Assembly: GCA_030616165.1 (NCBI GenBank)
Contig: JAUWXV010000001.1
Coordinates: 17,843 to 81,842, forward strand
From: a bacterium
GTDB lineage: Bacteria > SM23-31 > JAUVVT01
Reading direction: 5' to 3'
Length of the DNA: 64,000 nt
Shown here: in pieces, positions 8,060 to 54,592 of the stretch
Layout: the number at the start of each line of letters is the position of its first letter
How positions within the stretch are numbered: the stretch's first letter is position 1
The notes under the pieces: model-generated
Databases searched by the model: none
What the model was told of the DNA's origin: nothing
Seen by the model: the letters and a program-made list of their open reading frames with translations, nothing else
Program-made: the position numbers and the translations under genes

Positions 8060-8081
8060 AAATATATTTTTTTAAAATCTT

Positions 8082-13845: not shown

Positions 13846-13877
13846 CCTTACTTAAAAACCAGTTTTTTCAAAATTTA

Positions 13878-13990: not shown

Positions 13991-14028
13991 TTCATATTTT
14001 ATCCTCGTTTTTCATAGAACTTTTGACA

Positions 14029-30849: not shown

Positions 30850-30874
30850 CAATTTAAGAAAGGAGGATAATATA

Positions 30875-31711: not shown

Positions 31712-31771
31712 AAGAGTTTTACTTTTTAATTTTTTAGCTATTTTAAATTTAACCAATATAGGAGTAAAAAA

Positions 31772-32704: not shown

Positions 32705-32741
32705 GGAGCAACGGCTATATAAAAGGACAAAATGAATTTTA

Positions 32742-32963
32742 ATGGAGGATGACATAACAGGAGAACCAGAAATAAATGTTGATGAACTAAGAAAAAGTGG
32801 CGTAGTAAAACTAAAAGATAAAGATATGTTTTTCCTATGGATTAAAACAACGTGTTCTAATCTAAACTCAAAGTGGTTGAGGAAACTCGCTGATAATGTA
32901 AAAGAAGAACTTGGCGAAGTTTATTTATCATTAGACCGCTGTGATGTGAATAGGAAAAGATAG
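32742..32963 (+). CDS. small hypothetical protein
   Basis: 73-aa ORF between cysK and the sulfite reductase gene; no recognisable motif. Confidence 0.3.
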   Translation: MEDDITGEPEINVDELRKSGVVKLKDKDMFFLWIKTTCSNLNSKWLRKLADNVKEELGEVYLSLDRCDVNRKR

Positions 32964-33027
32964 TAAGTATGCTGAACAAACATTCATAATGAAATCAATA
33001 AAGTTAATTGAATAATCAGGAGGAGAA

Positions 33028-33984: not shown

Positions 33985-34051
33985 TGAAGTTGCATATTGA
34001 GCGAAATATAGCTAATGATTATTATTAGAAAATATAAAAGGATTGTTAAAA

Positions 34052-34777: not shown

Positions 34778-35994
34778 TAAATCAAGAAAAATATTCAGAA
34801 AACAGAAGACAGGGTAAAGAATTAGACCATCAATTAAGGGTCTATTCTGATATAACACAACTAATAGCCAGTCCACAGAATCCGACACCATTAGTTAGAT
34901 TAAATAGAATCAACCCTGATAAGGATTTTCAAATTTATATTAAACTGGAAAGATATAATCCATTTGGTTCAGTTAAAGATAGGATTGTTTATGAAATGCT
35001 AAAGGCATTGGAAGTAAGGGATAGAACAGTGGTTGAGCCATCATCGGGAAATACGGGGATTGCGTTAGCTTGTGTTGCCAATGCATTGGGAATACCGGTT
35101 GAGATTGCTGTTCCAGAGAGAATTCCTGATGAAAAAAAGGTAATGCTAAAATTTTTAGGGGCTAAGGTAACAGAAGCTGATGACGCACTGTGCCCTTTAT
35201 TTCCTACTGAAGGAGCCAGGGGTTTAGTAAACGCCTTGATAAAAAGCCCGGCTACTAAAAATAGCTATGTTAGCCCCAATCAATACGAGAATGAATTGAA
35301 TGTTCAAGCCCATTACCAAACCACGGGACCAGAAATATGGAAGCAAACACAAGGTAAAATCGATTATTTCTTTGCTGGATTTGGCACCTGTGGCACAATA
35401 ACTGGTGTCGGTAGATATCTCAAAGAGCAAAATCCAAAAATAAAGATTATTGGCGTAGAACCTTCTTCCCCCAACCATAAATTGCCCGGGATGAAGAGAA
35501 TAACCGGGTTAGATGAGGAGTTTATACCGAAAATTCTAGACCGCTCATTAATCGATGATATCGTATCAGTAACCGATGAAGAAGGTTATAGAACTGCTAT
35601 AAAATTAGCCAGAAAAGATGGAATTCCTGTTGGTCCTACCACGGGGGCTATACTTTGTATTGCCTTAAATTATGCCAAACTAAATAGAGGTTTAGCTGTT
35701 GTTATATCACCTGATGACGCATTCAAATACGCAAGTTACTACAAGGTTATCTTGGAAACAGGATTCAGAGAAATTAAGGAAAAAGAGTATGATTTGTGTG
35801 GTTTAGTTTGCCCTCTATCAAAGATAAAAGCGATAGAATTATTAGATAATCTTGGTGAAGGAGAAACTGCAAGAGTAATACTAGGAGATAGCGAATCTCT
35901 CAAAAGCGTGGTGCAAGAATTAAAAACCAGAGGAATAAAACCAGGTTTTGAACAAGAGAGCGAAAGTAGATTTATATTGACTATTACTATATGA
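34774..35994 (+). CDS. cysteine synthase (CysM/CysK-fold PLP enzyme) fused to a C-terminal TusA-like sulfur-carrier domain
   Basis: SSGNTGIALACV and GFGTCGTITG PLP-fold motifs. C-terminal about 75 aa with CGLVCPLSKIKAIELL resembles the TusA CPxP motif. ATGA overlap with cysH stop. Confidence 0.7.
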   Translation: MINQEKYSENRRQGKELDHQLRVYSDITQLIASPQNPTPLVRLNRINPDKDFQIYIKLERYNPFGSVKDRIVYEMLKALEVRDRTVVEPSSGNTGIALACVANALGIPVEIAVPERIPDEKKVMLKFLGAKVTEADDALCPLFPTEGARGLVNALIKSPATKNSYVSPNQYENELNVQAHYQTTGPEIWKQTQGKIDYFFAGFGTCGTITGVGRYLKEQNPKIKIIGVEPSSPNHKLPGMKRITGLDEEFIPKILDRSLIDDIVSVTDEEGYRTAIKLARKDGIPVGPTTGAILCIALNYAKLNRGLAVVISPDDAFKYASYYKVILETGFREIKEKEYDLCGLVCPLSKIKAIELLDNLGEGETARVILGDSESLKSVVQELKTRGIKPGFEQESESRFILTITI

Positions 35995-36050
35995 TAAGAT
36001 TATATTAACAGAGCAAACAGAACTAAAAATAAATTTAAAAGTGGATTTGA

Positions 36051-36278
36051 ATGGAAAGCCACAAAAGAAGCATCATAAAAGCTATTACTTGGCGGGTTAT
36101 TGCTTCTCTAATTATATTCGTAATTGCTTATTTATTTACAAAAGAAGTAGTATTATCAGTGGGTATAGGCATTTCCGATACAATTGTAAAAATTGTTACT
36201 TATTACTTTCATGAAAGGATGTGGAATAAAATAGATTTTGGAAGAGAGAAAAGAGATGAAGAAGATTATTCGATATAA
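36051..36278 (+). CDS. small two-helix membrane protein (DUF2061-like)
   Basis: KAITWRVIASLIIFVIAYLFT...ISDTIVKIVTYYFHERMWN. Confidence 0.4.
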   Translation: MESHKRSIIKAITWRVIASLIIFVIAYLFTKEVVLSVGIGISDTIVKIVTYYFHERMWNKIDFGREKRDEEDYSI

Positions 36279-36332
36279 GGATTAAATCGAAATTGGTAGA
36301 GACTATTCGAATAATAAATACAGGAGAATAAA

Positions 36333-37001
36333 ATGAGAAGTCTTATGTTTAAGACATTGAAGGAAGATATTCAAACAGTTTTCAGTAAAGACCCGGCTGC
36401 CAAAAGCGTGATAGAGGTTATCTTTTGCTATCCTGGACTCCATGCCATTTGGATGAATAAAATTGCACATTTCTTCTGGATGCATAAGTTTCTCTTTATT
36501 GGAAGGTATATTTCCCATGTTAATCGCTGGCTGACGGGGATTGAGATTCACCCGGGAGCAAAGATTGGGAGAAGATTTTTTATTGACCATGGAATGGGAG
36601 TAGTAATAGGAGAAACTGCCGAGATTGGTGATGATGTTTTGCTTTATCAGGGCGTGGTTTTAGGTGGCAGAAGTTTCGAAAAGAAGAAACGGCATCCTAC
36701 TCTCGGAGATAATGTTGTTGTTGGAGCAGGGGCTGTTATTTTAGGTCCAGTAAATATCGGGGAAGGTGCAAAAATAGGGGCAGGGAGTGTGATACTTCAG
36801 GATGTTCCTTCGGGTGCAACAGCAGTTGGTGTTCCAGGGAAGATTAAAATGGGATTATCAGCTAAATTGATGGAGGATTTGGAACATGGGAAAATACCAG
36901 ACCCTATTTTCAGTACTATTCAGTTTATGATAGAGGAACAGGAAAAACTTGCAAAAAGGGTAAAAGTGTTAGAGTCTCAAGGCAGCAACTTTTCGAATTA
37001 G
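36333..37001 (+). CDS. cysE: serine O-acetyltransferase
   Basis: N-terminal SATase helical domain plus hexapeptide region [44 protein letters not shown]. Confidence 0.9.
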
Positions 37002-37074
37002 AAAAGAATTTGCAAAGAAAAAAAAAGGATAAAGAGAAGAAAAACTCTTAATAAAATAAAGTATCTGTATTATT

Positions 37075-37179
37075 GAGATTGCCACGCTTCATCCCCCCGC
37101 TGAAAGCAGGGGGACTTCGCTCAACACGATAAATTAACTGCAAAGAGAGGAGCGACGCCTGCGCAGGCGTGGCAATCTC
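37075..37179. mobile_element. about 105-bp MITE-like element with perfect 13-bp TIRs GAGATTGCCACGC/GCGTGGCAATCTC
   Basis: TIRs read directly. The right end GGGGGATGAAGCGTGGCAATCTC is shared with the 23584-23640 element. Confidence 0.55.
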
Positions 37180-37248
37180 ATACAAATTTGCAAATGTTTT
37201 GTAATTTAAAAAAATAACAAGGATTTTATCTTTTTAACAGACTAAATA

Positions 37249-38430
37249 ATGAAAGATAAATTGAAATCGTCAACCAGGTGTGTTCACTATGGTGAGAATA
37301 GAAAAGAACCGTATTATTCTGTTATCACACCAATTGTCAATTCGGCTCCATATAGATTTAGTTCCAGCAAAGAATTATTGGATTTTGTTACAGGTAAATC
37401 ATCAAGAACCCAGCCAGAATATGGGCGAATGGGAAATCCCACGGTTACATCCGTTCAGGAAAAACTTGCAAGGTTAGAGGGTGGGAAAAATGCACTGCTT
37501 TTTGCAAGTGGAATGTGTGCAATTACGACAGCATTATTTGTACTTTTGAAAAAGGGTGATCATATTGTCATAACCAATGATTCATACCGTCGGACAAGAG
37601 ACTTTGTTTTAAATTTTCTTCCAAAGTTCGGGATTAAATCAACAATAACAAAATCGACTTCATCTGATATTAAGAAAGCATTAAGGAAAACAACAAAAAT
37701 AATCTTTTCAGAATCCCCGACAAATCCTTACCTTCATGTTTTAGATTTGAAAGCAATTGCTGATATTGGAAAGCAGAATAATATTATAACTATTATAGAC
37801 AGCACTCTTGCCACTCCTGTAAACCAGAAGCCATTACAATATGGGATTGACCTTGTCATACACTCGGCTACAAAGTATTTGGGAGGGCATAACGACCTGA
37901 TTGCAGGCGTTTTAATTGGTTCAGATAAACTGGTTCAGCCGATTGCTGAATTATTAATGACCATAGGAGGTATTTGTGACCCCAATACGTCGTATTTAAT
38001 CGAAAGAGGTTTAAAAACGCTCGATTTGCGAGTAAAAAGACATAATGAAAATGGGCAAAAAGTAGCACAATTTCTTGAGAAGCATCCAAAAGTTTTAAAG
38101 GTTTTTTATCCGGGTTTAAAAAGCCATCCAGACCATAAGATTGCAAAACGTCAAATGAAAGGATTTGGAGGATTACTTTCTTTTTTACTCCAAACCGATT
38201 TTAAGGGAGCAATGAAATTTATTGATAGCTTAACAATTCCCCAGATTGCTCCAAGTTTTGGTGGACCCGAATCGCTTATTGAACAACCTGCGCTGATGTC
38301 TTTTATGGATATCAAAAAAAAGGAAAGGGAGAGAATAGGAGTTTTTGATAATTTAGTACGATTATCTCTCGGTCTTGAGGACAGTGAAGATATCATCGAA
38401 GACCTGAAGAGAGGTCTGGAAAAACTATAG
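37249..38430 (+). CDS. Cys/Met-metabolism PLP enzyme (cystathionine gamma-synthase/beta-lyase/O-acetylhomoserine sulfhydrylase family)
   Basis: IHSATKYLGGHNDLIAGVL (PLP-lysine motif), NPT N-terminal motif. Confidence 0.85.
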   Translation: MKDKLKSSTRCVHYGENRKEPYYSVITPIVNSAPYRFSSSKELLDFVTGKSSRTQPEYGRMGNPTVTSVQEKLARLEGGKNALLFASGMCAITTALFVLLKKGDHIVITNDSYRRTRDFVLNFLPKFGIKSTITKSTSSDIKKALRKTTKIIFSESPTNPYLHVLDLKAIADIGKQNNIITIIDSTLATPVNQKPLQYGIDLVIHSATKYLGGHNDLIAGVLIGSDKLVQPIAELLMTIGGICDPNTSYLIERGLKTLDLRVKRHNENGQKVAQFLEKHPKVLKVFYPGLKSHPDHKIAKRQMKGFGGLLSFLLQTDFKGAMKFIDSLTIPQIAPSFGGPESLIEQPALMSFMDIKKKERERIGVFDNLVRLSLGLEDSEDIIEDLKRGLEKL

Positions 38431-38653: not shown

Positions 38654-41254
38654 ATGGACTTATTTTTACAAGATGGGGCGAGGGTAGGAATTATAGGTGG
38701 GGGTCCCTCTGGGAGTTTTACGGCTATTCATTTATTGAGCATTGCAGCTTCGCTTAACAAAAAAATTAAGGTATTCATCTTTGATAAAAAAGATTTTACA
38801 TCTGGTTTAGGGTGTAATTTTTGTGCAGGCATTCTTTCTAATACACTAATTAAAGAGTTAGTCCAATATAATATTATTATCCCGCCAGAGATAATCCAAA
38901 GAGAGATTAAAGGATACTATTACGAGACGAGAGAGGGGACAGCATATTTCCCAAAGCCATCTACTTCATCAATTTTCAGTGTGTTCCGAGCAAATGGACC
39001 TTGCAGCTCAAAAGAATTATATAACGTTAGTTTTGACTATTTTCTTCTACAAGAAGCGATTAAAAGGGGAGCAAACAAAATAGACACCAATATCAATGAA
39101 GTCATTTTTCCTTCCACTCCACAGGATCGAGTATCACTTTACTCACAGGAGCAAAATACATATTATGAATTTGAACTGGTATTCGGTGCATTTGGAATAA
39201 ATACTCCTTTTATTAAAGAATTAGAAAAATCAGGAATCGGATACAAAGCCCCAAAATACCTGCATTCTGGTCAGGCTGAGATCCCCTACGATATATCTTT
39301 GAATAAAAAGTTTCATGACAATGTCACTGTTTTTCTTATTCCTCTCAGGAATTTATACTTCTTTTCCTTTACACCAAAAGCAGAGTATTTAACGGTTACC
39401 GCTATTGGTCCTCATGTTACAAAAGCAATGCTGGAGGAAATATTTACCATTCCGCAGGTTATGAAATATTTTCCAGACAAATGGCAGTTCCCATTGGAGT
39501 ATTGTCACTGTCATCCAAGAATATCTGTTACTATTGCGGAAAATTTCTTCTATCACCGTTTTGTGGTTGTCGGAGATGCTTGTTGGTCAAGGTATCTCAA
39601 GGATGGTATTGCATCTGCATTTTATACCTCAAAATTCGGAGTTGAATGTGCTTTCAAATATGGGATTTCACGTAATGCGTTCCGGGACAGATACTTTAGG
39701 GAAATTACTCGGATGGATAAAGATAATACTGTAGGAAAAATTTTATTTAAAATCCATAATAGATTGAAAAGGTCGCAGACTGTGCGGGGCTCTCTTTTTT
39801 CGATGACCAGAGATTACTATCATAAAACAATTCAGGAAAATGTACGATATATCCTATGGGGTTTATTTACAGGTGATTACTCTTATAAGAAGATAATGAG
39901 AAAATCTTTTAGGATTTCATTTATCGTGCCCTTTATTATAAATATTATTAATGCATACCTGAAGATTATCTTTAATAATCTGTCAAAAATTAATAAAAAA
40001 ACAAAATTAAGACCAATAAAAAATCAGAGCAGTAATGTAACAGTGTCAAATTTAGTAAACGGAGATACAATTATTGTTATTGGTGGGGGACCAGCAGGCA
40101 CTTCTTGTGCAATACATGCAAAAAAACTTGCTGTAAATAATAATATAGACTTGTCAGTCATATTAATCGAACCTAAAACTTTTAGCATACATTACAATCA
40201 GTGTGTTGGTGTTCTTTCCCCTAGGATAAAACAATTGATGGGAGATATAGGTATAGACTTCCCGGAACATTTAATTCAAACAAAAATTCCAGGGTATTAT
40301 TTGAATGCAAATGGTGAAGAAATATATCTTCCTTCTGATAAACATAACGATATTGGACTTGCTTTAAGGCGGAATGAGTTTGATGCTTTTATGATAGAGC
40401 AGGCTTTGCGGAACGGAGTACAAGTTGTCCGGGGAGAAGTTGTGACATTCGATTATTCAAAAAATGACAAAAAGAATAAATTCATTGTTTATTGCAATTC
40501 CGGCACTTATAAGTGCAATTTTATTGTAGGTGCTTTTGGTGTCGGGAATGGGATTGCCCTTGATTTTTTTAAAACTTTCCGGTACCGACCTCCACATATT
40601 CTTCAATCAATTGTTTCCAAAATTCATCCTCTGGATAATTTATATATTGATGAAATTTTTGGAAATAATATCCATACTTATCTCCCTAAATATAAAGCAA
40701 TTGAATTTGGAGCAATAACTCCAAAGGGCAACCATTTAACAGTCAATATCGCCGGTGAAAAAATCAGTTTTAAAGATATGGAATATTTTCTAATGATAGA
40801 TGAAGTAAAAAAATGGATTCCCCCCCATAAAGAACGAACTTACTTTAAAGGTCAATTCCCAACAAGTCCTGCACATCGATTCTATGGAGATAATTACTTG
40901 ATCATAGGTGATGCGGCTGGTTTAGTTCGGCCATTTAAAGGAAAAGGTGTAAATTCAGCAATTCTCTCAGGTAAAATTGCTGCTGAAACTATCGTGAATT
41001 ATGGCACAACGGCTCTTGCAATAAAACGAAACTTTGTACAACATCCACAGATACAAAAAATATTAATCGATTATAAATATGGAAAAATTATAAGAAAATT
41101 AACTATTCAGGCTTCACATCATAATCTTTTAAAATATATAATTAATTATGCAAAAAGAAATAAAACGTTCGAAACCGCTCTATATAATGCTGTCTCTGCT
41201 AACAGACTTTATAAGGATATTATTTTATGTACTTTAAGAAACTTAGTGAGTTAA
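38654..41254 (+). CDS. internally duplicated FAD-dependent oxidoreductase (two geranylgeranyl-reductase-like halves)
   Basis: Two GxGxxG dinucleotide motifs (VGIIGGGPSGSFTA at residue 10; IIVIGGGPAGTSCA at about residue 470), separated by a hydrophobic linker. Confidence 0.6.
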   Translation: MDLFLQDGARVGIIGGGPSGSFTAIHLLSIAASLNKKIKVFIFDKKDFTSGLGCNFCAGILSNTLIKELVQYNIIIPPEIIQREIKGYYYETREGTAYFPKPSTSSIFSVFRANGPCSSKELYNVSFDYFLLQEAIKRGANKIDTNINEVIFPSTPQDRVSLYSQEQNTYYEFELVFGAFGINTPFIKELEKSGIGYKAPKYLHSGQAEIPYDISLNKKFHDNVTVFLIPLRNLYFFSFTPKAEYLTVTAIGPHVTKAMLEEIFTIPQVMKYFPDKWQFPLEYCHCHPRISVTIAENFFYHRFVVVGDACWSRYLKDGIASAFYTSKFGVECAFKYGISRNAFRDRYFREITRMDKDNTVGKILFKIHNRLKRSQTVRGSLFSMTRDYYHKTIQENVRYILWGLFTGDYSYKKIMRKSFRISFIVPFIINIINAYLKIIFNNLSKINKKTKLRPIKNQSSNVTVSNLVNGDTIIVIGGGPAGTSCAIHAKKLAVNNNIDLSVILIEPKTFSIHYNQCVGVLSPRIKQLMGDIGIDFPEHLIQTKIPGYYLNANGEEIYLPSDKHNDIGLALRRNEFDAFMIEQALRNGVQVVRGEVVTFDYSKNDKKNKFIVYCNSGTYKCNFIVGAFGVGNGIALDFFKTFRYRPPHILQSIVSKIHPLDNLYIDEIFGNNIHTYLPKYKAIEFGAITPKGNHLTVNIAGEKISFKDMEYFLMIDEVKKWIPPHKERTYFKGQFPTSPAHRFYGDNYLIIGDAAGLVRPFKGKGVNSAILSGKIAAETIVNYGTTALAIKRNFVQHPQIQKILIDYKYGKIIRKLTIQASHHNLLKYIINYAKRNKTFETALYNAVSANRLYKDIILCTLRNLVS

Positions 41255-41320: not shown

Positions 41321-42829
41321 ATGACAAGGAAATTGCCACCCTTATTGTTAAATCCTATTAGTTTAATAGGGATTCTTATTGCTTTGACCAGTTTCATTGC
41401 CATTATAATTCTCTTTTTTGCTCATATTTTTTTAGCACCTGATAATCCATATATTGGAATAGTCACTTACCTGATTTTCCCAATCTTTTTAATAATAGGA
41501 TTACTTATAATTCCCTTCGGTATGTTTATTGAGAGACGGCAACAATTAAAAAGAAAAGGAATAAAAGAACGGCGTCTTCCAATTATCGATTTTAACCAGC
41601 AAGATCAGAGAAACGCTTTTATACTCTTTTTGATAGTTTTAATTATTTTTATGATATTGAGTGCTGTTGGAAGTTACAGAGCTTATGTTTTCACCGATTC
41701 AGTAGTTTTTTGTGGGAAAATCTGCCATTCTATAATGCATCCTGAATATATTACTTACATGGAGAGCCCTCATGCCCGGGTGTCATGTGCTGAGTGTCAT
41801 GTTGGAACAGGAGCCAACTGGTATGCCAAATCAAAGCTTTCCGGTGCATATCAGGTTTATGCTACAATAGCACAAAAATATCCTAAGCCTATTCCAACAC
41901 CTATCAAAAATTTACGACCAGCTCAGGAAACCTGTGAGCAGTGTCACTGGCCAGGGCAATTTTTTGGTGGGAAACAGAAAATATTTACTTATTATTTAAG
42001 TGATGAAGAAAACACCAAGTATGAAATTAATATGTTAATGAAGGTTGGTGGCGGAAATCCAAAATCCAGTAGAACTTCGGGTATTCACTGGCATATGAAT
42101 ATTCAGAATAAGATAGAATTTATATCAACGGATAATAAAAACAAAATTATTCCTTGGATTCGTTCTACTAACCTATTAACTGGGGAAGTAAAAACATTTA
42201 CTGATGAAGAGAACCCACTATCAGAAGAATTATTGTCAAAGAGTAAGCCTCATGTAATGGATTGTATGGATTGTCATAACCGACCAACTCATATCTTTAA
42301 GTCTCCAAGTCTTTCCGTTAATGAAAAAATTCTATTAAATCGAATTAATAAATCATTACCTGAGGTTAAATATATATCTGTTGAACTTCTTTCAGATGAT
42401 TATGAAACAACTGATATTGCAGTGAACACAATTGCCGAAGAGATTTGGAAATTTTACAGAGAAAATTATCCCAAGGTTTTTGAAAAGGAAAGGGATAGTA
42501 TAAAACAATCAATCAGAGAATTGCAGGAGATTTATCAGAGGAATATTTTTCCAGAAATGGGTGTAAAGTGGTCAGTTTATCCTGACCACATTGGACATCT
42601 TGATTTCCCGGGTTGTTATAGATGTCATGATAATAAACATATTACGGAATACGGAGACCGACTGGCGAATGATTGTAATCAATGTCACACAATTTTGTCG
42701 CAGGAGTTTGGAGGCGAAAAAGAAGAGACTCTCGACCCAAAAGGAATAAAATTTAAACATCCAGTTGATATTGGAGATGACTGGAAATTAGTAGGATGCC
42801 ATGAATGTCATACAGGATTAAATCCTTAA
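41321..42829 (+). CDS. inner-membrane heptahaem c-type cytochrome, ImcH-like (NapC/NirT-related quinol dehydrogenase)
   Basis: Three N-terminal TM helices. Seven haem motifs (CGKICH, CAECH, CEQCH, CMDCH, CYRCH, CNQCH, CHECH). Confidence 0.7.
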   Translation: MTRKLPPLLLNPISLIGILIALTSFIAIIILFFAHIFLAPDNPYIGIVTYLIFPIFLIIGLLIIPFGMFIERRQQLKRKGIKERRLPIIDFNQQDQRNAFILFLIVLIIFMILSAVGSYRAYVFTDSVVFCGKICHSIMHPEYITYMESPHARVSCAECHVGTGANWYAKSKLSGAYQVYATIAQKYPKPIPTPIKNLRPAQETCEQCHWPGQFFGGKQKIFTYYLSDEENTKYEINMLMKVGGGNPKSSRTSGIHWHMNIQNKIEFISTDNKNKIIPWIRSTNLLTGEVKTFTDEENPLSEELLSKSKPHVMDCMDCHNRPTHIFKSPSLSVNEKILLNRINKSLPEVKYISVELLSDDYETTDIAVNTIAEEIWKFYRENYPKVFEKERDSIKQSIRELQEIYQRNIFPEMGVKWSVYPDHIGHLDFPGCYRCHDNKHITEYGDRLANDCNQCHTILSQEFGGEKEETLDPKGIKFKHPVDIGDDWKLVGCHECHTGLNP

Positions 42830-42910: not shown

Positions 42911-44137
42911 TTATTGAGAAGATTCCTTTGCAATAGAAGACAGAGGTGTTGTTGCAGCTTCAGGCCATGGCGGAAGGATTTTTATGATTATATACAATAC
43001 GAATAGTGGAAGAAATAATAATGCAATGGATATCAAAAGACCTTCGATTCCTAAAAGTTCCATCTTATAATGGGTTAGTCCTCGAAGGCTTTTCGAGAAT
43101 AATTGACCACCTATCACGACGTTCCACCTTGTGCTGAATATCCCAATTTGAACTAAAATTGCCGCTCCAAAATAGATTAACCTACGTAACTCATCGGGGA
43201 GCCGGAATAGTTTTACAGATGCTAATGAACCCAAAGGCAGTAAAGTTCCCAGGAGTATTTGAATTACAACAAGACTTATAAACAATTTTTGTGATATCAA
43301 CTGGCCTAAAATGTGGATGGATTCAACAGACTCATACATCCGGTGGATAAAATCCAGGGTCTCGAGAGAAATATCAAGTATCATCGCATACAGCAGAAAT
43401 GACGCCAGTTTGTCCATGCATGCCATATCGATTGGTTTCCAACGAAAAAGGGTTGTTACACCATATATCAGGATCATCAACGCGATTCCTGAAACAATAG
43501 CCGAAAACAGAAATACAATAGGCATCAACACGCTGCTCCACCAGGGATTTGCCTTCACGGAGCCAAAAATAAAACCTACATATCCATGCAGTAAAAATGC
43601 TGACGGGATACCGATTATGGTAATAAACTTTCCTGCTTTACGGTCAAATCGTATTGCCTTTTCGGACAGGTCCAGTGAGCCTAATGAAAGAAGATAGTAC
43701 ATATACTTTCGCCATCCTTTTTTACTCCGAGCCCAATAAACGATGTCCTTCCTATAATCAAACCATATTTCGAGCATTAACACTATCATCAAGTACCAGG
43801 CGTAAACAAATCCGAACATTGCCATTGCTGACTTTAATTGAGGAGTGAGAAAAATTTCAATTGACCGTTCGGGGTAACTAAGGTGTGCAAGGAGCGGAAG
43901 TGGGGCTATGATCAGAAATGCCAGCGCAGTCAACATAGACAGGCGGTATGTAGGTTGAACTTCTTTTACTTCAAAAACACGCTCCAGTGAAGCAAGGATG
44001 AATGCCCCTGCGACAAGCCCTGTGATATATGGATATACGACTATCAAAATCCCCCAATGGAGTTCCACCTCGTTTGGATAAATATACCCAACCACTTGTT
44101 TTAAGATTGGCTGTAGTTGTTCGATTAAATTTTCCAT
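42911..44137 (-). CDS. NrfD/PsrC-type polytopic quinone-interacting membrane subunit
   Basis: About 10 TM helices with NrfD-like organisation; 2 bp downstream of the FeS subunit gene. Confidence 0.75.
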   Translation of the reverse strand: MENLIEQLQPILKQVVGYIYPNEVELHWGILIVVYPYITGLVAGAFILASLERVFEVKEVQPTYRLSMLTALAFLIIAPLPLLAHLSYPERSIEIFLTPQLKSAMAMFGFVYAWYLMIVLMLEIWFDYRKDIVYWARSKKGWRKYMYYLLSLGSLDLSEKAIRFDRKAGKFITIIGIPSAFLLHGYVGFIFGSVKANPWWSSVLMPIVFLFSAIVSGIALMILIYGVTTLFRWKPIDMACMDKLASFLLYAMILDISLETLDFIHRMYESVESIHILGQLISQKLFISLVVIQILLGTLLPLGSLASVKLFRLPDELRRLIYFGAAILVQIGIFSTRWNVVIGGQLFSKSLRGLTHYKMELLGIEGLLISIALLFLPLFVLYIIIKILPPWPEAATTPLSSIAKESSQ

Positions 44138-44139
44138 AA

Positions 44140-44898
44140 TTATCTCACTTCCCCATCCAAGTTAGCGTAATAAATTTTTGGTTCCGTATTAAGATGAGGT
44201 TTCAGAACCTGGACTTTGTTGAAACGCATGAATCGGGCTAATAGGCTGCTGCGCAAACCGATCTCGCCAAATATCCTCGCTTCGGTTGGACAAACTTCAA
44301 CACAAGCGGGCTTTAGACCCCGGGATAAACGATGATAGCAGAATGTACATTTTTCCGCCGTACTGGTCACAGGGTTAAGAAACCTTGCTCCGTACGGACA
44401 TGCCTGAATACAATAACGACACCCGAGGCAGTAATCTTTATCGATCAATATCACTCCATCCTTAGTGATAAATGTAGCACCTACCGGACATACCTGCACG
44501 CATGGTGGATTAGCACACTGGTTGCACAATTTTGGCACAAAGAAGGTCCGCATGATCTCATTTTCGGCAACCATTTCAGGAAAACCCTCACTTCCCCCAT
44601 TTGGGCTATCAACCTGTGCTGTCCCATCAATAAGAATTATGTACCGCTCAACCCAAGTCCGGAAAAAGAATGGTTCACGAGGTACATCATTTTCCCGCTT
44701 ACATGCATCTACACACTGTCCACAACCGATGCACTTGTCGACCTGAATTCCCATCCCGTATTGATGTATTGGTTCATTATCATTTGATGAATCAGAATCT
44801 TCTGAAGCAGGAGACCCGAATAATAACAGTACGGTTCCTACAAGTGTGCTTTCCCGTAGAAACTCTCGGCGATTCATCAATTCACGTTTCTTTTTCAT
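44140..44898 (-). CDS. Tat-exported 4x[4Fe-4S] ferredoxin subunit (NrfC/PsrB/DsrO-like)
   Basis: MKKKRELMNRREFLRESTLVG Tat signal. Four CxxCxxCxxxCP clusters. Start set at ATG 44898 (ATGA overlap with the upstream cytochrome stop). Confidence 0.85.
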   Translation of the reverse strand: MKKKRELMNRREFLRESTLVGTVLLLFGSPASEDSDSSNDNEPIHQYGMGIQVDKCIGCGQCVDACKRENDVPREPFFFRTWVERYIILIDGTAQVDSPNGGSEGFPEMVAENEIMRTFFVPKLCNQCANPPCVQVCPVGATFITKDGVILIDKDYCLGCRYCIQACPYGARFLNPVTSTAEKCTFCYHRLSRGLKPACVEVCPTEARIFGEIGLRSSLLARFMRFNKVQVLKPHLNTEPKIYYANLDGEVR

Positions 44899-45764
44899 CA
44901 GCGCACCTCCGGATAATGTGGATAATGACATTGCCAGCACGCATGATCAGGCTCATGTGACTGAAGGTCCACCCGCGGTATTTCCCCGGCACTTTCTGCA
45001 TTTTCTCCATGACAACCACCGCAAAATGTTCTCTTCCGTGGTTTACTGGGACGAAATGACCGGGGATCTTTTTTATGTGCTTCAGGAGCAGAGTGACACT
45101 GGGTACACTCCAGGGCAGCATGGTGTGAGACAGCTTTTGTCCGCGCAATTTCCCCGTGACATGCTCCACATTCCTCAGGGGGTTGCGGAGGTTTGGGATC
45201 ATGGGGTTCGTGACAAGACATACAGGGTTCTAAAGGATTATGTGTGACTATATTAATTTGGGGGAATCCCGTTGGCTTGGACGCATTATATATATGACAG
45301 AGGGGACATAAACCCCGCTGACGTGGAGCCGAAGGAGTATTTTCGCTGGGATCCTCAACATGGTTTGCACCTGGCCCATGGCATACTTCGCAGGCAACAT
45401 TCTGATGATAAGATGTTTGTTTTAACGCTACATATTCATCGTGACACTCTGAACACGCTTCCTGCCCAGCATAATGGATTGGAAGAGCTAATATAGAATC
45501 TATGGCAGCTGCTCGGTAGTGTCCCTCTTTTACAAAGGTGGGCGGCATTAAGTAATTCCGGACGGTAATGAGCATTATCACTAAAATAATAAAAATAATA
45601 AGTAAGCGTTTTATTTGGTCTGGAAAAGGAATTGATTTCCAGCCCGGCATTCTTAATTCTGGACGAAATCGAAAATTTAACATGTTTTTTGTCTGAATCA
45701 GCTTTTTAATATCAATTAAGTAATGAAAAACGAGATAATGAAAAATTTCATGGAATTTTAACAA
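44898..45764 (-). CDS. membrane-anchored octahaem c-type cytochrome
   Basis: TM helix LLIIFIILVIMLITV. Eight CxxCH motifs (CSECH, CEVCH, CPLCH, CMSCH, CGACH, CTQCH, CGGCH, CWQCH). The true start is probably an internal Met. Confidence 0.8.
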   Translation of the reverse strand: MLKFHEIFHYLVFHYLIDIKKLIQTKNMLNFRFRPELRMPGWKSIPFPDQIKRLLIIFIILVIMLITVRNYLMPPTFVKEGHYRAAAIDSILALPIHYAGQEACSECHDEYVALKQTSYHQNVACEVCHGPGANHVEDPSENTPSAPRQRGLCPLCHIYNASKPTGFPQINIVTHNPLEPCMSCHEPHDPKPPQPPEECGACHGEIARTKAVSHHAALECTQCHSAPEAHKKDPRSFRPSKPRKRTFCGGCHGENAESAGEIPRVDLQSHEPDHACWQCHYPHYPEVR

Positions 45765-46047: not shown

Positions 46048-46110
46048 TTGACTTTTTTAAAAAAAAATTATATTATTAAGAAAAATTTCATACTTAATAA
46101 CCAAACGATA

Positions 46111-46551
46111 ATGGAAGAGAGAAACACATCAAGAAAGAGTTTTATTAATTACCTGTTAGGCGGTGGTTTTACTCTTGTCGCAGCTTCTTTCTTATATCCA
46201 ATAGTGAGGTTCGTGCTCCCTCCAAAATCGACCGAAGCAGAACCTATGGCAGTATCTGCTGGCAAGGTTGGCGAGATGCATTTAAATTCTGGGAAGATAT
46301 TTAAATTTGGAAGAAAACCTGGTCTGCTTATTTATACAGAACAGGGTGAATATCAGGCATTTATGGCAACCTGTACACATCTTGACTGCATTGTGCAATT
46401 CCGAAATGATTCTGAAAGCATCTGGTGTGCTTGCCATAATGGATATTATGACCTTAATGGAAATAATATATCTGGTCCGCCCCCAAGACCCTTAGAAAGA
46501 CTGAATGTTTTTATAAAAGATGATGATATAATGGTTTCAAAAATTACTTAA
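46111..46551 (+). CDS. Rieske [2Fe-2S] iron-sulfur protein
   Basis: CTHLDC...CACHNG Rieske boxes and N-terminal TM/Tat-like anchor. Start at ATG 46111. Confidence 0.85.
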
Positions 46552-46552
46552 A

Positions 46553-47626
46553 ATGAAGACCTACACAACCAATCTCATTAATTGGCTTGATAAAAGATAC
46601 AACATAAAAGAAATAATAGGATTTATTACAGAAAAGAAGGTCCCTATTTACAAACACACTATCTGGTATTATATGGGAGGGATAACCCTTCTTTTTTTTA
46701 TCATTCAGGTTTTAACTGGCATACTTCTTCTTCTCTATTACCGACCTACTCCTGAGGAGGCATTTGAAAGTGTTCAATTTATTATGACACAGGTTCACTA
46801 CGGATGGCTTATCCGCTCTATTCACAGTTGGTCAGCAAATCTTATGATTCTTTTTGCATTTATACATATGTTCAGTGTATTACTCCTGAAATCTTACAGA
46901 CCTCCACGTGAACTAACATGGGTAACCGGTGTGCTGTTAATGTATATATCTCTTGCTTTTGGCTTCACGGGTTATCTCCTTCCGTGGAATGAATTGTCCT
47001 TTTTTGCCACAAAAGTTGGTACTGACATAGCGGGAGTTATTCCTTTTATTGGAAAATTCATTATTAGATTCCTGAGAGGTGGAGAAGACGTTACAGGAGC
47101 GACCTTGACGAGACTCTTTGGATTTCATGTTGCTGTCCTTCCAGGAGTAATCATTGTGATTTTGGTTATACATTTATTGATGGTTCAACGACAGGGAATG
47201 AGCAAACCGATAGGCTTAAAAGAAGTGAAGAAGGGGATGCTATTTTTCCCGGACTTTTTTTTAAGAGACCTTTTAGGATGGCTATTTGCAGTTGGGATTC
47301 TTGCAGCTCTGGCTGCTATCTTTCCCTGGGAACTGGGGCAGAAGGCAGACCCATTTTCATCTGCTCCAGAAGGCATCGCGCCTGAATGGTATTTTTTATT
47401 TATGTTTCAAACATTAAAATTCTTCCCCGCAAGAATATTAATTTTAGACGGCGAAGTGATTGCAGTCTTTATTTTCGCAGCACTCGGAATATTCTGGATT
47501 CTAATCCCATTTCTTGATACTAAAGCCAGAAGGGAACAAAAAAGCCCGATATTTACAACTATAGGTATTTTTGCAATTCTATACGTGGGGATAATTACTA
47601 TACTTTCTTATTTTGTATTTAAGTAA
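46553..47626 (+). CDS. cytochrome b (fused b6/subunit IV-type) of a Rieske/cyt b complex
   Basis: [38 protein letters not shown] (haem-ligating His helices), PEW motif region. Confidence 0.9.
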
Positions 47627-48933
47627 TGTATTCGCATAATCTTATGAAAAATATTATTAGACATTTCAACATTATTTACATACTATTTTTATTTATTTTT
47701 CTCTTCCCCGCTATATATTTATTTCCACAAGAAAGGCACAATAATTGTATCGAATGCCACAGTAAATTCGAAGAAGAAGAGACATCGCCAACCATTGAAT
47801 TTAAAAATGATATCCATAATACAAGTGGTATGTTATGTTCTGACTGTCATGGTGGAGACCCGGAAATAAATGCAGGTGGAAATCAAGAACTTGCTATGAA
47901 TCCTAAAAAAGGATATAAACCACCTCCGGGTCATAACGAAATCCCCGAATTCTGTGCAAGATGCCATTCTGATTTTGAATATATGAAAAAATTTAATCCC
48001 AATATAAGAGTAGACCAATATGAAAATTATTTAACAAGTCAACACGGGAAATTACTGGCAAAGGGAGATGATAAAGTAGCTAATTGTGTTAGTTGTCATA
48101 AAACCCACGGGATTCGAAAAAAAACAAACCCTGCCTCAGCCGTTTTTGCAAACAAAATTCCGGAAACTTGTAGTAAATGCCACTCAGACCCGGAATATAT
48201 GAAGGAATATAAAATCCTGACTAACCAGTTGGAAATGTATAAAAAAAGTGTTCACGGGGAATTTTTATTGGAAAAAGGGGACTTAAATGCTCCTGCTTGC
48301 AATGACTGCCACGGAAATCACGGTGCCGCTCCCCCGGGTGTCGAATCTGTACACAATGTCTGCGGAGTATGTCACTCAGGAAATAATCAGTTGTTCTTAA
48401 AAAGTTCTCATAAAAAATACTTTGATGAATTTGGCTTTCCAGAATGTGCATCATGTCATGAACATCATTTAATAAAAAAACTTACAGAAGAATCTCTCGG
48501 GGTTGGAGACCAATCTGTTTGCGGAATTTGTCATACACAAGAAGATGAAGGAGGTATAATCGCTGTTGAAATGAAAAATATTATCGAAAATTTTTCTGCA
48601 CTGCGGGATACTTGCCAAATATTGTCCGAAGAGGTAGAAAGGAAGGGTATGCCCGTTAATGAAATAAAATACCAGATGAACAATGTTGACTCTGAACTGT
48701 TAAAAGCAAGAAATATAGTGCATAGTTTTTCTCTGGAAAATATAAAACAAATAACTGAAGAAGGAACAAAACTTGCCATCTCTGTAAAAAAAATGGCAAA
48801 TGATGAATTAAAAGAATATCAAATTAGGAGAATAGGACTGGCTGTCTCGCTTTTCTTTATTTTTTTAGCGGGAACCGCCCTCTATTTGAAAATCAAGAAG
48901 ATAGACAAAAAAAATATAATAAATTCTTTTTAA
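47626..48933 (+). CDS. nonahaem c-type cytochrome with N- and C-terminal membrane anchors (cytochrome c subunit of the Rieske/cyt b complex)
   Basis: Nine CxxCH motifs. C-terminal TM IGLAVSLFFIFLAGTALYL. 1-bp overlap with the cyt b stop. Confidence 0.8.
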   Translation: MYSHNLMKNIIRHFNIIYILFLFIFLFPAIYLFPQERHNNCIECHSKFEEEETSPTIEFKNDIHNTSGMLCSDCHGGDPEINAGGNQELAMNPKKGYKPPPGHNEIPEFCARCHSDFEYMKKFNPNIRVDQYENYLTSQHGKLLAKGDDKVANCVSCHKTHGIRKKTNPASAVFANKIPETCSKCHSDPEYMKEYKILTNQLEMYKKSVHGEFLLEKGDLNAPACNDCHGNHGAAPPGVESVHNVCGVCHSGNNQLFLKSSHKKYFDEFGFPECASCHEHHLIKKLTEESLGVGDQSVCGICHTQEDEGGIIAVEMKNIIENFSALRDTCQILSEEVERKGMPVNEIKYQMNNVDSELLKARNIVHSFSLENIKQITEEGTKLAISVKKMANDELKEYQIRRIGLAVSLFFIFLAGTALYLKIKKIDKKNIINSF

Positions 48934-49298: not shown

Positions 49299-52076
49299 AT
49301 GAAATCAAGACTTTTAGCTTTAATTGCGATAAGTATTCTCAGTATGTTTATAATCAAAATATTAATTGCCCAAAGTTCTGAACCAACTGCAAAGATTAAA
49401 CTCGATTTTGTTACCTCGCATAAGATTGACGTTGATACGGCTTTGACATCCACAGGGAAAGCCTCAGGGCTGAATAATGTAGGTGTCGGTGAAACTGTTT
49501 ATCCGGTGGGTGTTGCTACCGGTACGAATATTACTTATCAGTGGTCTATTGATGGACCGACAGGTTCTTCAGCAACTTTAAGCAGTACTATCGAAGACAG
49601 TATACACTTTCAGCCGGACGTAGAAGGGATTTATATATTAACTCTCACGGTTACTGCTGATGAAGGAACAGCAACTTCCTCAATCAAGGTTCAGGCGGCG
49701 AAATATATAGGTGTTGGAAAAATTGATGGTCTTAAGTCTGAATTTCCTCAGTGTGGCATAGGATGCCATTATACTATTTATGACAAATGGATTCAAACAG
49801 GACATGCTACAGCATTCAGCAGGAAACTGGATGAAGAAGGCGGACATTTCGGTTCAAATTGTATAGATTGTCATTCAATAGGTTATAATACACTTACTAA
49901 TGCGGTTAATAATGGATTTGATGATATAGCAAGTAGCCTTGGATGGACCTTCCCTGATACCTTAAAATCGGGAAATTGGCAGAATATGATAAACAATTAT
50001 CCCTCACTTGCCCAGAGAGCAAATATACAATGTGAAAATTGCCATGGTCCAGGCAGCGGTCATAATTTTAAAGATGGTCCAATTGAAGAATCCGGTATCG
50101 GTAAGACCTATGAGCCTGGTATTTGTGCATATTGTCATGATGCTCCTACTCACCATGTGTATTTTCCTGAGTGGGAAAAAAGCGGTCATAATACAGTAGA
50201 TGATCACATGAATAGTTCATCATGTGCCAAATGCCATACAGGGAAGGGTTTTGTAATCCAAAATATAAGAGGTGAGGCATCTGAAGCACCTTATGTTGAG
50301 GGTGCGGCTGTTACTTGTGCAGCCTGTCATGACCCTCACGATGCTACAAATGAACATCAATTACGGAAAGTTTCGAATGTTACACTTAATGATGAAACAA
50401 CAGTGGTTTCTGAAGGAGGATTGGGAAAACTTTGTATGAACTGCCATCTTTCAAGAAGAGATGCAGAAGAATATGTAACTAAATATCATAGTCATTTTGG
50501 CCCTCATCACTCGAATCAAACAGATATGTTAGTTGGTGCAAATGCTATAGAGTTCGGGCTCTCCATGCCGGAGACTGGACATATCAAAGCAGTTGAAGAT
50601 GCTTGTGTCACATGTCACATGGCAGAACAGCCAAAAGAAAATAAAGATGAAGGTATATCCAAGGTTGGTTCGCATACTTTCAGTATGGTTAGCACCGTTG
50701 GAACTGATACAACTTACAATGTTGAGATATGTCAGGGCTGTCACGGCAGTGAAATTGAAAAATTTGAAGATGTAAAAGCATCTTCGGATTATGATGGTGA
50801 TGGCACGATAGAAGGAGCTGTAGCGGAAGTTGAAGGTTTAATGCATCAATTGGGAATGCTTCTTCCACCATTAGATGAGCCTGGAGTTTCTGTAGCTAAA
50901 GATTATACTCCTGTACAGCTTAAGGCTGCGTATAACTATGAATTCGTTGATGATGATGCAAGCCATGGAGTTCACAATACATCTTATACAGTTGCAATTT
51001 TGAAGGCTGCAATTCAGGCAATTTCTACTGGAGATATTGGAGCGGGCAGTATTATAGCAATTGATGATGTTCCTAACGACCAGGGGAAACAGGTACGAAT
51101 ACGTTGGAATCGTTTTTCGGGAGATGGAAAATTAGACAATCCTATTGGGAAGTACGGAATATGGCGGCGTATCGATGATATGAGTTTGGCAAAGAATGCT
51201 AATACTGTTTCATCTTATGAGGATATGTTCAATAGTCTGGAAAAAATTTCTGAAGGAAGTCAATTCGTGGTCACTGAAAGCGGAGAACTCTGGGATTTTG
51301 AAAAAGAAGTCTCTGCAGTCGGGGAAGACAAGTACAGCACAATTACTGCTACGCTTTTTGATTCTACAATTACAGATGGCATGCACTGGTCTGTTTTTTA
51401 CATTTCTGGTCATTCACTCGAAGGTGGATTAGTTGTGAAATCTGCTGTGGACAGTGGTTATTCAGTTGATAATTTGGCACCTGCAGTACCTGTTCTAAAG
51501 ATAGCATCAAAAACAGCCGGTATGGTTACTGTAGAATGGGATGCTCCTGTGGATGAGGACTTCAAATACTTCAATGTATATCGGGGAACAGAGCAGGGGT
51601 TTGACCCTGCGACTGTTGAGCCAATTTTGAGAAGGGTAGATGCTGAATTCACCGAAAATCTTTCTGCTGTTGGTGAAAAATATTATTACAGGATTAGTGC
51701 TGTGGATTTCAGTGGGAACGAATCAGGATTTTCACTGGAAATTTCTGAGGATAACGTAATAACCAGTCTTGAACTTGGTAATATCAGTAGTATCCCAGGA
51801 AAGTTCGCTCTGGAACAGAATTATCCGAACCCATTTAACCCGATAACACATATACGTTATCAACTGCCAAAAAGTACTAATGTCACTCTACATATATATG
51901 GTATCACCGGTAATCTGATTCGTACTCTTGTCAGCGAATACCAGCACCAAGGTTTTATAGAGGTTGAATGGAATGGAAAGGATGATTTTGGTAGCTCGGT
52001 AGCATCTGGAATTTATATTTATAGAATTACAGCAGGGAAGTTCTCGGATAGCAGAAAAATGATTCTCATAAAATAA
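49299..52076 (+). CDS. secreted nonahaem c-type cytochrome with beta-sandwich region and T9SS C-terminal sorting domain
   Basis: Signal peptide. Nine haem motifs (CGIGCH, CIDCH, CENCH, CAYCH, CAKCH, CAACH, CMNCH, CVTCH, CQGCH). C-terminus LEQNYPNPFNPITHIRYQLPKSTNVTLHIYGITGNLIRTLV...GIYIYRITAGKFSDSRKMILIK matches the Por/T9SS CTD consensus. AGGAGG RBS. Confidence 0.8.
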   Translation: MKSRLLALIAISILSMFIIKILIAQSSEPTAKIKLDFVTSHKIDVDTALTSTGKASGLNNVGVGETVYPVGVATGTNITYQWSIDGPTGSSATLSSTIEDSIHFQPDVEGIYILTLTVTADEGTATSSIKVQAAKYIGVGKIDGLKSEFPQCGIGCHYTIYDKWIQTGHATAFSRKLDEEGGHFGSNCIDCHSIGYNTLTNAVNNGFDDIASSLGWTFPDTLKSGNWQNMINNYPSLAQRANIQCENCHGPGSGHNFKDGPIEESGIGKTYEPGICAYCHDAPTHHVYFPEWEKSGHNTVDDHMNSSSCAKCHTGKGFVIQNIRGEASEAPYVEGAAVTCAACHDPHDATNEHQLRKVSNVTLNDETTVVSEGGLGKLCMNCHLSRRDAEEYVTKYHSHFGPHHSNQTDMLVGANAIEFGLSMPETGHIKAVEDACVTCHMAEQPKENKDEGISKVGSHTFSMVSTVGTDTTYNVEICQGCHGSEIEKFEDVKASSDYDGDGTIEGAVAEVEGLMHQLGMLLPPLDEPGVSVAKDYTPVQLKAAYNYEFVDDDASHGVHNTSYTVAILKAAIQAISTGDIGAGSIIAIDDVPNDQGKQVRIRWNRFSGDGKLDNPIGKYGIWRRIDDMSLAKNANTVSSYEDMFNSLEKISEGSQFVVTESGELWDFEKEVSAVGEDKYSTITATLFDSTITDGMHWSVFYISGHSLEGGLVVKSAVDSGYSVDNLAPAVPVLKIASKTAGMVTVEWDAPVDEDFKYFNVYRGTEQGFDPATVEPILRRVDAEFTENLSAVGEKYYYRISAVDFSGNESGFSLEISEDNVITSLELGNISSIPGKFALEQNYPNPFNPITHIRYQLPKSTNVTLHIYGITGNLIRTLVSEYQHQGFIEVEWNGKDDFGSSVASGIYIYRITAGKFSDSRKMILIK

Positions 52077-54580: not shown

Positions 54581-54592
54581 GGTGTTTATTAC

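Follow-up and report, generated by a model that had tools for sequence, protein, structure and literature searches.

The imcH-like gene and its haem motifs

We analysed a 64-kb stretch of bacterial DNA (hereafter the window; GC content 36.7%), in which an earlier sequence-only reading had placed a gene for a 502-residue, ImcH-like inner-membrane cytochrome at 41321-42829. Re-derivation of the open reading frame (ORF) returned this gene at 41321..42829 (+), with an ATG start, an intact frame, and 502 codons followed by a stop codon. The ATG start was supported by alignment of the predicted N-terminus (MT-RKLPPLLLNPISLIG) with that of Geobacter ImcH (MTLRKTAGYLWNPISLIG), whose N-terminal sequence (MTLRKT) has been determined experimentally (Pimenta et al. 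2023, bioRxiv 10.1101/2023.05.03.539133). Scans for sigma-70 promoters and terminators around the gene gave nothing exceeding shuffled controls, and an Rfam scan of the whole window identified no RNA family.

A motif scan located seven haem c motifs in the predicted protein, starting at residues 131, 156, 205, 315, 432, 452 and 493, and thereby bore out the count of exactly seven made from the sequence alone. The first motif, CGKICH (residues 131-136, 41711..41728 (+)), is of the atypical CX3CH type, a detail that goes beyond the sequence-only reading, and is equivalent to C132..H137 (CGELCH) of Geobacter ImcH. An atypical CX3CH first motif is a published hallmark of ImcH (PMC4251993, PMC6295460). 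In an alignment of 50 sequences, comprising the window protein and 49 closer relatives at 47-78% identity (alignment A1), C131, G132 and H136 of this motif were invariant and C135 nearly so (≥90%). The other six motifs are all CX2CH and were supported by the scan, by alignment and by conservation: CAECH (residues 156-160, 41786..41800 (+)), CEQCH (205-209, 41933..41947 (+)), CMDCH (315-319, 42263..42277 (+)), CYRCH (432-436, 42614..42628 (+)), CNQCH (452-456, 42674..42688 (+)) and CHECH (493-497, 42797..42811 (+)). The last of these is likely the exit haem, haem 7 having been suggested as the partner-docking site from the model of Geobacter ImcH (bioRxiv 10.1101/2023.05.03.539133). All 14 cysteines of the protein (14/14) sit inside haem motifs. 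Given 14 Cys and 19 His among 502 residues, only about 0.015 CXXCH motifs would be expected in a random sequence of this composition, so the seven motifs are not a chance occurrence.

A Kyte-Doolittle scan identified hydrophobic segments at residues 4-43, 41-73 and 94-125, all before the first haem motif, and an AlphaFold2 model of the protein (mean pLDDT 79, pTM 0.69) had long helices at residues 12-37, 43-78 and 94-125. Based on both, we assigned transmembrane (TM) helix 1 to residues 12-37 (41354..41431 (+)), TM helix 2 to residues 43-70 (41447..41530 (+)) and TM helix 3, the counterpart of the single membrane anchor of NrfH, to residues 98-121 (41612..41683 (+)). The corresponding helices of the Geobacter ImcH GSU3259 were published as 13-35, 45-67 and 100-122 (PMC6295460 Table S3). 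Lysine and arginine residues number two at the N-terminus, none in the loop at 38-42 and nine in the loop at 71-97 that follows TM2. By the positive-inside rule, this distribution fits a topology in which the N-terminus and the K/R-rich 71-97 loop are cytoplasmic and the haem domain is periplasmic, in agreement with the requirement for c-type haem attachment. Hydropathy, modelled helices and charge distribution were thus in accord with the three helices that had been proposed earlier together with a topology check.

Comparison with the ImcH of Geobacter

ImcH is defined by three TM helices, a NapC/NirT-like region and seven haem motifs of which the first is CX3CH (PMC4251993, PMC6295460). It was introduced by Levar et al. 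as a new family with homologues in the Acidobacteria and the Melioribacter group (PMC4251993), and Zhong and Shi (2018) reported 71 homologues across 12 phyla (PMC6295460). Proteins of the Geobacter group are 495-519 residues long, and every member has three TM helices, one CX3CH motif and six CX2CH motifs (PMC6295460). GSU3259 itself has 507 residues and motifs at 132, 156, 205, 311, 428, 448 and 486 (PMC6295460 Table S3). Pimenta et al. predicted its axial histidines to be residues 137, 152, 161, 210, 256, 258, 316, 321, 423, 433, 453, 474 and 491, and Gln179 to be the distal ligand of haem 1, and drew attention to three conserved residues that can be protonated, E127, K173 and Y188, close to where menaquinol is presumed to bind (bioRxiv 10.1101/2023.05.03.539133).

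Scans of genome contigs for GSU3259 with the Levar CompF primer and a 3'-junction 24-mer gave no matches, and a homologue search with a 194-aa published fragment returned only proteins of at most 340 aa and no full-length named Geobacter entry. A machine-read copy of the supplementary alignment of the preprint (Fig. S2) provided roughly the first 280 residues of G. sulfurreducens ImcH. When the window protein was compared by BLASTP with residues 91-283 of this copy, the two were 50% identical across 176 aa, with only one gap of one residue (E=6e-69). For comparison along the full length we used, as a stand-in for GSU3259 and not as the PCA genome entry, an ORF from a metagenome contig (L002) that is 97% identical to the published G. 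sulfurreducens fragment. The L002 ORF has 507 aa, starts with MTLRKT, matches Levar primer 3259KHis1 exactly and carries 17/17 published residues at their published numbers; its end reads GHGKH where the primer implies PGKH. Another Geobacter-like contig (L001) carried a frameshifted imcH, homology to the C-terminal half being detected by tblastn in other frames, and was superseded by L002.

The global alignment of the window protein with the L002 ORF was collinear from end to end, with few short gaps and 213 identical residues out of 492 (43%). Identity was highest in the region of the first haems (59%, residues 126-215), with 37% for residues 1-125, 45% for 216-330, 29% for 331-415 and 48% for 416-502. 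All 13 axial histidines were kept (H136, 151, 160, 209, 256, 258, 319, 324, 426, 436, 456, 480 and 497). The counterpart of Q179, the predicted distal ligand of haem 1, is Q178 (41852..41854 (+)), and that of K173 in the quinol-site pocket, equivalent to K82 of NrfH and given this role in bioRxiv 10.1101/2023.05.03.539133, is K172 (41834..41836 (+)); both were invariant in alignment A1, as were all the axial histidines. The counterpart of Y188 is Y187 (41879..41881 (+)), which was the majority residue among the 50 sequences and not invariant. In place of E127, a protonatable residue of TM3, the window protein has D126 (41696..41698 (+)), at a position where Glu is the majority residue (consensus FTES).

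A profile HMM built from Geobacter-clade ImcH only (24 sequences, each at least 65% identical to L002) scored the window protein at 583 bits; the match was one domain, which took in positions 5-492 of the 507 in the profile and residues 4-498 of the protein. Since this profile covers nearly the whole protein and the NrfH and NapC/NirT models score far below their cut-offs (see below), the C-terminal half is ImcH-like and not an unrelated extension. According to the sequence-only reading, an ImcH-like identity would be contradicted if the protein clustered within the NapC/NirT tetrahaem proteins and its C-terminal extension were unrelated to ImcH. What we found instead was that residues 216-502 align with Geobacter-type ImcH at 29-48% identity with the ligands kept, and the protein has every sequence hallmark of ImcH that could be tested. 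Together, these data indicate that the window protein is almost certainly a member of the ImcH family as judged by sequence, and the ImcH-like identity first proposed for it holds.

The two proteins resemble each other in their three N-terminal TM helices, in one CX3CH and six CX2CH motifs at nearly equal positions, in length (502 versus 507 aa) and in a NapC/NirT-like region that spans TM3 and haems 1-3. They differ in two motif spacings, which are 110 and 41 residues in the window protein and 106 and 38 in Geobacter, and in the roughly 11-residue Gly/Ala-rich C-terminal tail of Geobacter ImcH, which the window protein lacks. The Geobacter imcH gene was described as monocistronic (PMC4251993), whereas the window imcH sits in a dense cytochrome island. 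The host differs as well, in that it is an uncultured bacterium with low-GC DNA (36.7%), encodes a protein with a type IX secretion system (T9SS) sorting signal, and does not belong to the Desulfuromonadales. Its sequence was assembled from metagenomic data, and the T9SS sorting domain, taken with the taxa of the named ImcH relatives, points to an affinity with the Bacteroidota/Ignavibacteriota/KSB1 group.

We also observed that M139 (41735-41737), which lies three residues past the haem-1 histidine (CGKICHSIM), was invariant in the 50 sequences and is present in Geobacter ImcH (CGELCHVVM). HMMER aligned M139 with the Met of the CXXCHxM motif of NrfH, which is the proximal ligand of haem 1 in that protein. 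Based on this invariance and alignment, the haem-1 ligation of ImcH, modelled in print as His/Gln, may deserve a second look.

Relation to other quinol dehydrogenase families

The first pair of haem motifs had been described as NapC/NirT-like, and this was borne out by a NapC/NirT/NrfH-like quinol-dehydrogenase region at residues 98-210 (41612..41950 (+)), identified by Pfam, NCBIfam and PDB matches. Pfam PF03264 (NapC/NirT N-terminal) matched residues 98-187 with 31.8 bits against a cut-off of 24.1, and the best NCBIfam model, that of NrfH (TIGR03153), matched residues 104-209 with 46.1 bits against a cut-off of 134.2. The sole solved relative found by sequence was also NrfH (2j7a_C, E=4.9e-4, residues 122-210). 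Pfam in addition identified a cytochrome c7-like stretch at residues 418-457. Other NCBIfam models scored lower still: 14.4 bits for NapC/NirT (TIGR02161, cut-off 310.6), and 15.7 and 14.0 bits for the TorC/DorC models NF011606 (cut-off 455) and TIGR02162 (cut-off 478.2). As the matches were local and the scores far below these curated cut-offs, the N-terminal third of the protein is NrfH-like, yet the protein lies outside the curated tetrahaem and pentahaem families.

Membership in three other groups was considered and rejected. For the NrfH/NapC/NirT tetrahaem proteins, the scores were below the cut-offs and the three helices and seven motifs of the window protein contrast with one helix and four haems. 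For the TorC/DorC pentahaem proteins, the scores (15.7 vs 455 and 14.0 vs 478.2 bits) were accompanied by seven motifs where five haems are typical. For CbcL/MtrH/MtoC, there was no match to Ni_hydr_CYTB or any other cytochrome b domain, and the only membrane helices are the three at the N-terminus. The earlier judgement that ImcH fits better than NapC/NrfH or CbcL was therefore upheld by the missed cut-offs and by the lack of a cytochrome b domain.

The resemblance to NrfH of Desulfovibrio vulgaris (PDB 2J7A) and to NapC/NirT/CymA extends to a homologous membrane helix and first haems and to a lysine matching K82 of NrfH. By analogy, the window ImcH probably shares with NrfH an electroneutral oxidation of quinol on the periplasmic side. 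The NrfH/NapC/NirT/CymA proteins have one TM helix, four haems and about 150-200 aa, whereas the window protein has three TM helices, seven haems and 502 aa. In NrfH the first motif is CXXCHxM with Met ligation; in the window protein it is CX3CH with a predicted His/Gln pair. CbcL (GSU0274) is likewise an inner-membrane multihaem protein proposed to take electrons from the quinol pool for extracellular transfer. It combines nine N-terminal c-haems with a C-terminal six-helix, HydC/FdnI-like dihaem cytochrome b domain (PMC6295460), while the window ImcH has no cytochrome b match.

These matches bear on a different explanation, that the gene encodes a NapC/NirT/NrfH-type quinol dehydrogenase dedicated to one reductase in the periplasm, acting on nitrite, nitrate, DMSO, TMAO, arsenate or a similar compound, with the C-terminal part a lineage-specific extension. 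It would account for the Pfam NapC/NirT and NCBIfam NrfH matches over residues 98-210, for NrfH being the only solved relative, and for the annotation of many homologues as 'NapC/NirT family cytochrome c'. The full-length models speak otherwise (46.1 vs 134.2 for NrfH, 14.4 vs 310.6 for NapC/NirT and 15.7 vs 455 for TorC), and homology to ImcH, with every ligand kept, extends through the last 290 residues, which largely refutes the idea of an extension. Moreover, no terminal reductase gene adjoins imcH in the window and none was seen in the loci of relatives; the neighbours of imcH are multihaem cytochromes. We consider a dedicated reductase partner very improbable, and return to ImcH as the identity of the protein.

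Relatives within the ImcH family

At least 7,938 homologues of the window protein were detected, and nearly all of the best 120 were about 500 aa long and covered 97-100% of the query. Named homologues among the matches listed came from KSB1, Zixibacteria, Latescibacterota, Krumholzibacteria, Eisenbacteria and Deltaproteobacteria, the closest of them being a protein of candidate division KSB1 with 62% identity. The spacing between successive motifs of the window protein (24, 49, 110, 117, 20 and 41) was found in 37/50 sequences of alignment A1, the window protein included, and differs from the 24, 49, 106, 117, 20 and 38 of the Geobacter clade. The same spacing of 24, 49, 110, 117, 20 and 41 can be derived for the homologue from Draconibacterium sediminis (WP_045033316.1), with published motifs at 122/146/195/305/422/442/483 (PMC6295460 Table S3). 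Compared by published lengths and motif positions only, the window protein shares both family and motif-spacing type with the ImcH proteins of D. sediminis, Melioribacter roseus (WP_014855859.1), Caldithrix abyssi (WP_006929899.1) and Zixibacteria RBG-1, which have 488-490 aa versus the 502 aa here.

The possibility that the gene is a decayed or non-functional paralogue in which the motifs were kept by chance can practically be dismissed. Nothing was found in its favour. The frame is intact, none of the 14 Cys or 13 axial His has been lost, and the ligand columns do not vary among the 50 sequences; in addition, the local gene order is shared with a relative whose ImcH is 78% identical (locus L087). 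The invariance of the ligands despite an overall identity of 47-78% points to purifying selection.

Homologues of ImcH have already been published from Bacteroidetes, Ignavibacteriae, Calditrichaeota, Zixibacteria and others, in 12 phyla (PMC6295460), and knowledge of the family is therefore unchanged by the window protein. Some homologues that we retrieved carry a long C-terminal extension: those at loci L040, L044, L046, L066 and L067 have 691-692 aa and 15-16 motifs, and that at L041 has 631 aa and 10 motifs. A range of 6-10 motifs is stated in the abstract of PMC6295460, and its Table S3 lists 13-motif variants. The 15-16 motifs of the five longest proteins exceed the range given in that abstract.

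The cytochrome island

Haem motifs counted for each ORF defined an island of multihaem cytochromes that spans 41.3 to 55.8 kb of the window and begins with imcH. Convergent (tail to tail) with imcH lies an operon of three genes on the minus strand (42911..45764), hereafter the trio, identified by Pfam and NCBIfam matches and, for the cytochrome, by haem count: a cytochrome c with eight haems (44898-45764, -), a 4Fe-4S protein (44140-44940, -) and an NrfD-type membrane protein (42911-44137, -). It is followed on the plus strand by a cluster of genes for a Rieske protein, a cytochrome b and a 9-haem cytochrome (46048..48933, +; 9-haem gene 47626-48933), assigned by the same means. The cytochrome b is both ExtP-like and b6-like and scores below the equivalog cut-offs (219 bits vs 290). 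This Rieske cluster is reminiscent of ExtMNOPQ, which forms part of the ext cluster in Geobacter.

Further along the plus strand, a gene at 49299-52076 encodes a 925-aa cytochrome with nine haems and, by Pfam and NCBIfam matches, PKD, MtrC/MtrF-like, FlgD-Ig and T9SS C-terminal sorting domains. Based on the sorting domain, this multihaem cytochrome is a candidate for export to the cell surface by type IX secretion. The island ends with a triplet (52185-55771, +) identified by haem counts, Pfam and NCBIfam. Its first member is a 7-haem cytochrome that contains a CxxxxCH/CxxCH domain, its second a beta-barrel-like protein of 431 aa, and its third a 14-haem cytochrome with c7-type trihaem repeats (54593-55771). 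The 431-aa protein carries a signal peptide, is rich in Tyr and beta-barrel-like in sequence, and matched no Pfam family. In its layout, the triplet resembles a porin-cytochrome conduit. No CbcL-like fusion was found in the window.

Proposed function of the window ImcH

Overall, the locus is best explained by an ImcH-family inner-membrane cytochrome that would act as an exit from the quinol pool for extracellular electron transfer, a reading to which we assign a probability of roughly 85%. Geobacter ImcH has been described as having seven haems, with His/Gln as the predicted ligands of haem 1, and as oxidizing menaquinol with release of protons towards the periplasm and passing electrons to PpcA (bioRxiv 10.1101/2023.05.03.539133). 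A location in the cytoplasmic membrane, covalent binding of all seven haems and this mode of menaquinol oxidation have been shown for G. sulfurreducens ImcH only (PMC4251993, bioRxiv 10.1101/2023.05.03.539133). By analogy, ImcH would likely serve here too as the quinol-oxidizing entry to an extracellular electron-transfer chain. That it would be restricted to high-potential acceptors, as in G. sulfurreducens, is a tentative extrapolation that we regard as somewhat doubtful. For the window ImcH, the analysis shows the ORF, its motifs and topology signals, the family to which it belongs, the conservation of its ligands and its gene context; from these we infer haem loading, menaquinol oxidation, electron partners, direction of flow and any preference for high potential.

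From homology with Geobacter ImcH and NrfH, menaquinol would be oxidized in a pocket at the periplasmic face beside haem 1. This pocket would consist of the CX3CH motif, whose H136 would be the proximal ligand, the distal ligand Q178 and the protonatable residues K172, Y187 and D126. The protons would be released to the periplasm, and since they leave on that side the step would be electroneutral. The electrons would then be relayed through the tightly packed chain of seven haems, leave from exposed haem 7 and be handed over to multihaem cytochromes of the periplasm. The most likely acceptors would be the products of the island, i.e., the c7-repeat and other multihaem cytochromes, the porin-cytochrome-like triplet and the cytochrome with the T9SS signal.

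Several findings weigh against this proposal or narrow it. Fold searches with the AlphaFold model gave no meaningful structural neighbour, and the NrfH-like fold thus rests on sequence homology and the published Geobacter model. No ORF for a small trihaem cytochrome like PpcA was found in the window. The residue equivalent to E127 of Geobacter ImcH is Asp (D126), although an acidic residue is kept. Two further quinone-interacting modules adjoin imcH, one of the NrfD type and one of the Rieske/cytochrome b type, so ImcH may not be the sole or the main quinol exit. Finally, in two genetic studies of G. sulfurreducens (PMC4251993, PMC5322298), ImcH is required only for acceptors above about -0.1 V, and the potential-specific role is known from the genetics of that species only.

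The presence of a Rieske/cytochrome b complex in the island also lends itself to another interpretation of an ImcH-family protein, namely that electrons run in reverse (quinone reduction, with Fe(II) oxidation or cathode uptake) or go to soluble or low-potential acceptors. Rieske/cytochrome b complexes are used by some organisms for uphill or downhill quinol-cytochrome reactions. The CymA and CbcL/MtoC families are thought to be bidirectional (PMC6295460), and the haems of Geobacter ImcH have low potentials (-150 to -358 mV) and equilibrate reversibly with PpcA (bioRxiv 10.1101/2023.05.03.539133). However, all reports of ImcH homologues to date concern Fe(III) reducers (PMC6295460), the residues of the quinol site are conserved, and the island is laid out as an outward conduit, with a T9SS-signal surface cytochrome and a porin-cytochrome-like triplet. 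We consider reverse flow or such other acceptors improbable, and favour outward electron flow from quinol through ImcH.

ImcH is one of the few known gates leading outward from the quinol pool in metal- or electrode-respiring bacteria and is a marker gene for the prediction of such metabolism. That the uncultured, low-GC host encodes a well-validated homologue, within a cytochrome island that looks complete, supports the predicted respiration of extracellular acceptors by this bacterium, and the island provides a concrete set of genes that is open to experiment.

The imcH neighbourhood in relatives

We compared the surroundings of imcH in relatives of the window protein and in 81 loci retrieved around Geobacter-like and other ImcH genes. 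In L087, the nearest relative, the genes for an FAD protein, ImcH and the convergent NrfD protein are arranged as in the window. The trio was present, at least in part, beside imcH in roughly 25 of the 81 loci, contig ends often interrupting; as the loci are not independent samples, we only describe this linkage and attach no statistical meaning to it. Loci with at least part of the trio include L001, L007, L009, L012, L013, L015, L017, L026, L038, L042, L048, L049, L051, L069 and L087. Its orientation relative to imcH was divergent in the Geobacter-clade loci, co-directional in L038 and L042, and convergent in the window and L087. The trio was absent from L003 and L004, the two loci with full flanks that are nearest to G. 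sulfurreducens.

In three loci, L083 (6852-11500), L084 (55% identity) and L085 (4991-9512, from Zixibacteria; 52%), the genes for the Rieske protein, cytochrome b, a multihaem cytochrome and ImcH are contiguous on one strand. The position of the Rieske cluster directly upstream of imcH on the same strand suggests that they form one operon in these loci. A KSB1 locus (L082) has the triplet, a T9SS-tailed cytochrome, ImcH, a CbcL-like fusion and genes for ResB/CcsA-type cytochrome c maturation. The proteins of the window triplet share 45%, 27% and 41% identity with their L082 counterparts, and the T9SS-tailed cytochromes are 37% identical. The CbcL-like fusion of L082 (4546-6462) is a 638-aa protein that joins a multihaem cytochrome c to Ni_hydr_CYTB in the same island as imcH, an arrangement that mirrors the pairing of ImcH and CbcL in Geobacter.

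The recurrence of imcH with the Rieske/cytochrome b cluster, with the trio (in three orientations and in several clades, Geobacter relatives among them), with the T9SS cytochrome and with the triplet leads us to speculate that in the host lineage and in its relatives, such as KSB1, Zixibacteria and allies, ImcH is a component of a conserved multi-module hub, unlike the stand-alone exit of G. sulfurreducens. We regard this as unlikely on present evidence. If the modules did cooperate, physically or energetically, for example as alternative or coupled quinol sites feeding a single haem network in the periplasm, this architecture for extracellular electron transfer would be distinct from the Ppc/Pcc route of Geobacter. 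Linkage of imcH to NrfD or Rieske modules is not discussed in bioRxiv 10.1101/2023.05.03.539133 or in the ExtI paper, and its recurrence with NrfD-type and Rieske/cytochrome b modules is the sole aspect of the locus that might lead further.

Other genes of the window

The FAD protein gene of the window (38654-41254, +) precedes imcH on the same strand, at a distance of 66 bp, and encodes 866 aa in two FAD/Rossmann halves, with motifs near residues 13 and 472. Its counterpart in L087 has 462 aa and a single half, and is 82% identical to one of the two halves. The occurrence of a single-half version at the same site in a relative this close suggests that the 866-aa protein arose by a recent tandem fusion or duplication. 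In the loci retrieved from other lineages, the FAD protein does not adjoin imcH.

Just upstream of the island, a run of sulfur- and cysteine/thiamine-related genes (30800-38430, +) encodes a Thi4-like protein, two PLP-dependent enzymes (one of them fused to TusA), a small sulfite/nitrite-reductase-like 4Fe-4S protein, a hexapeptide acyltransferase and a PLP enzyme of Cys/Met metabolism. On the other strand (6698-14916, -), genes for an FtsW/RodA-family protein and a penicillin-binding transpeptidase are clustered with those for two FHA-domain proteins, a HEAT-repeat protein and a Ser/Thr protein kinase that carries TPR repeats. This cluster has the appearance of an FHA/kinase-regulated cell-wall module and is unconnected with the ImcH finding.

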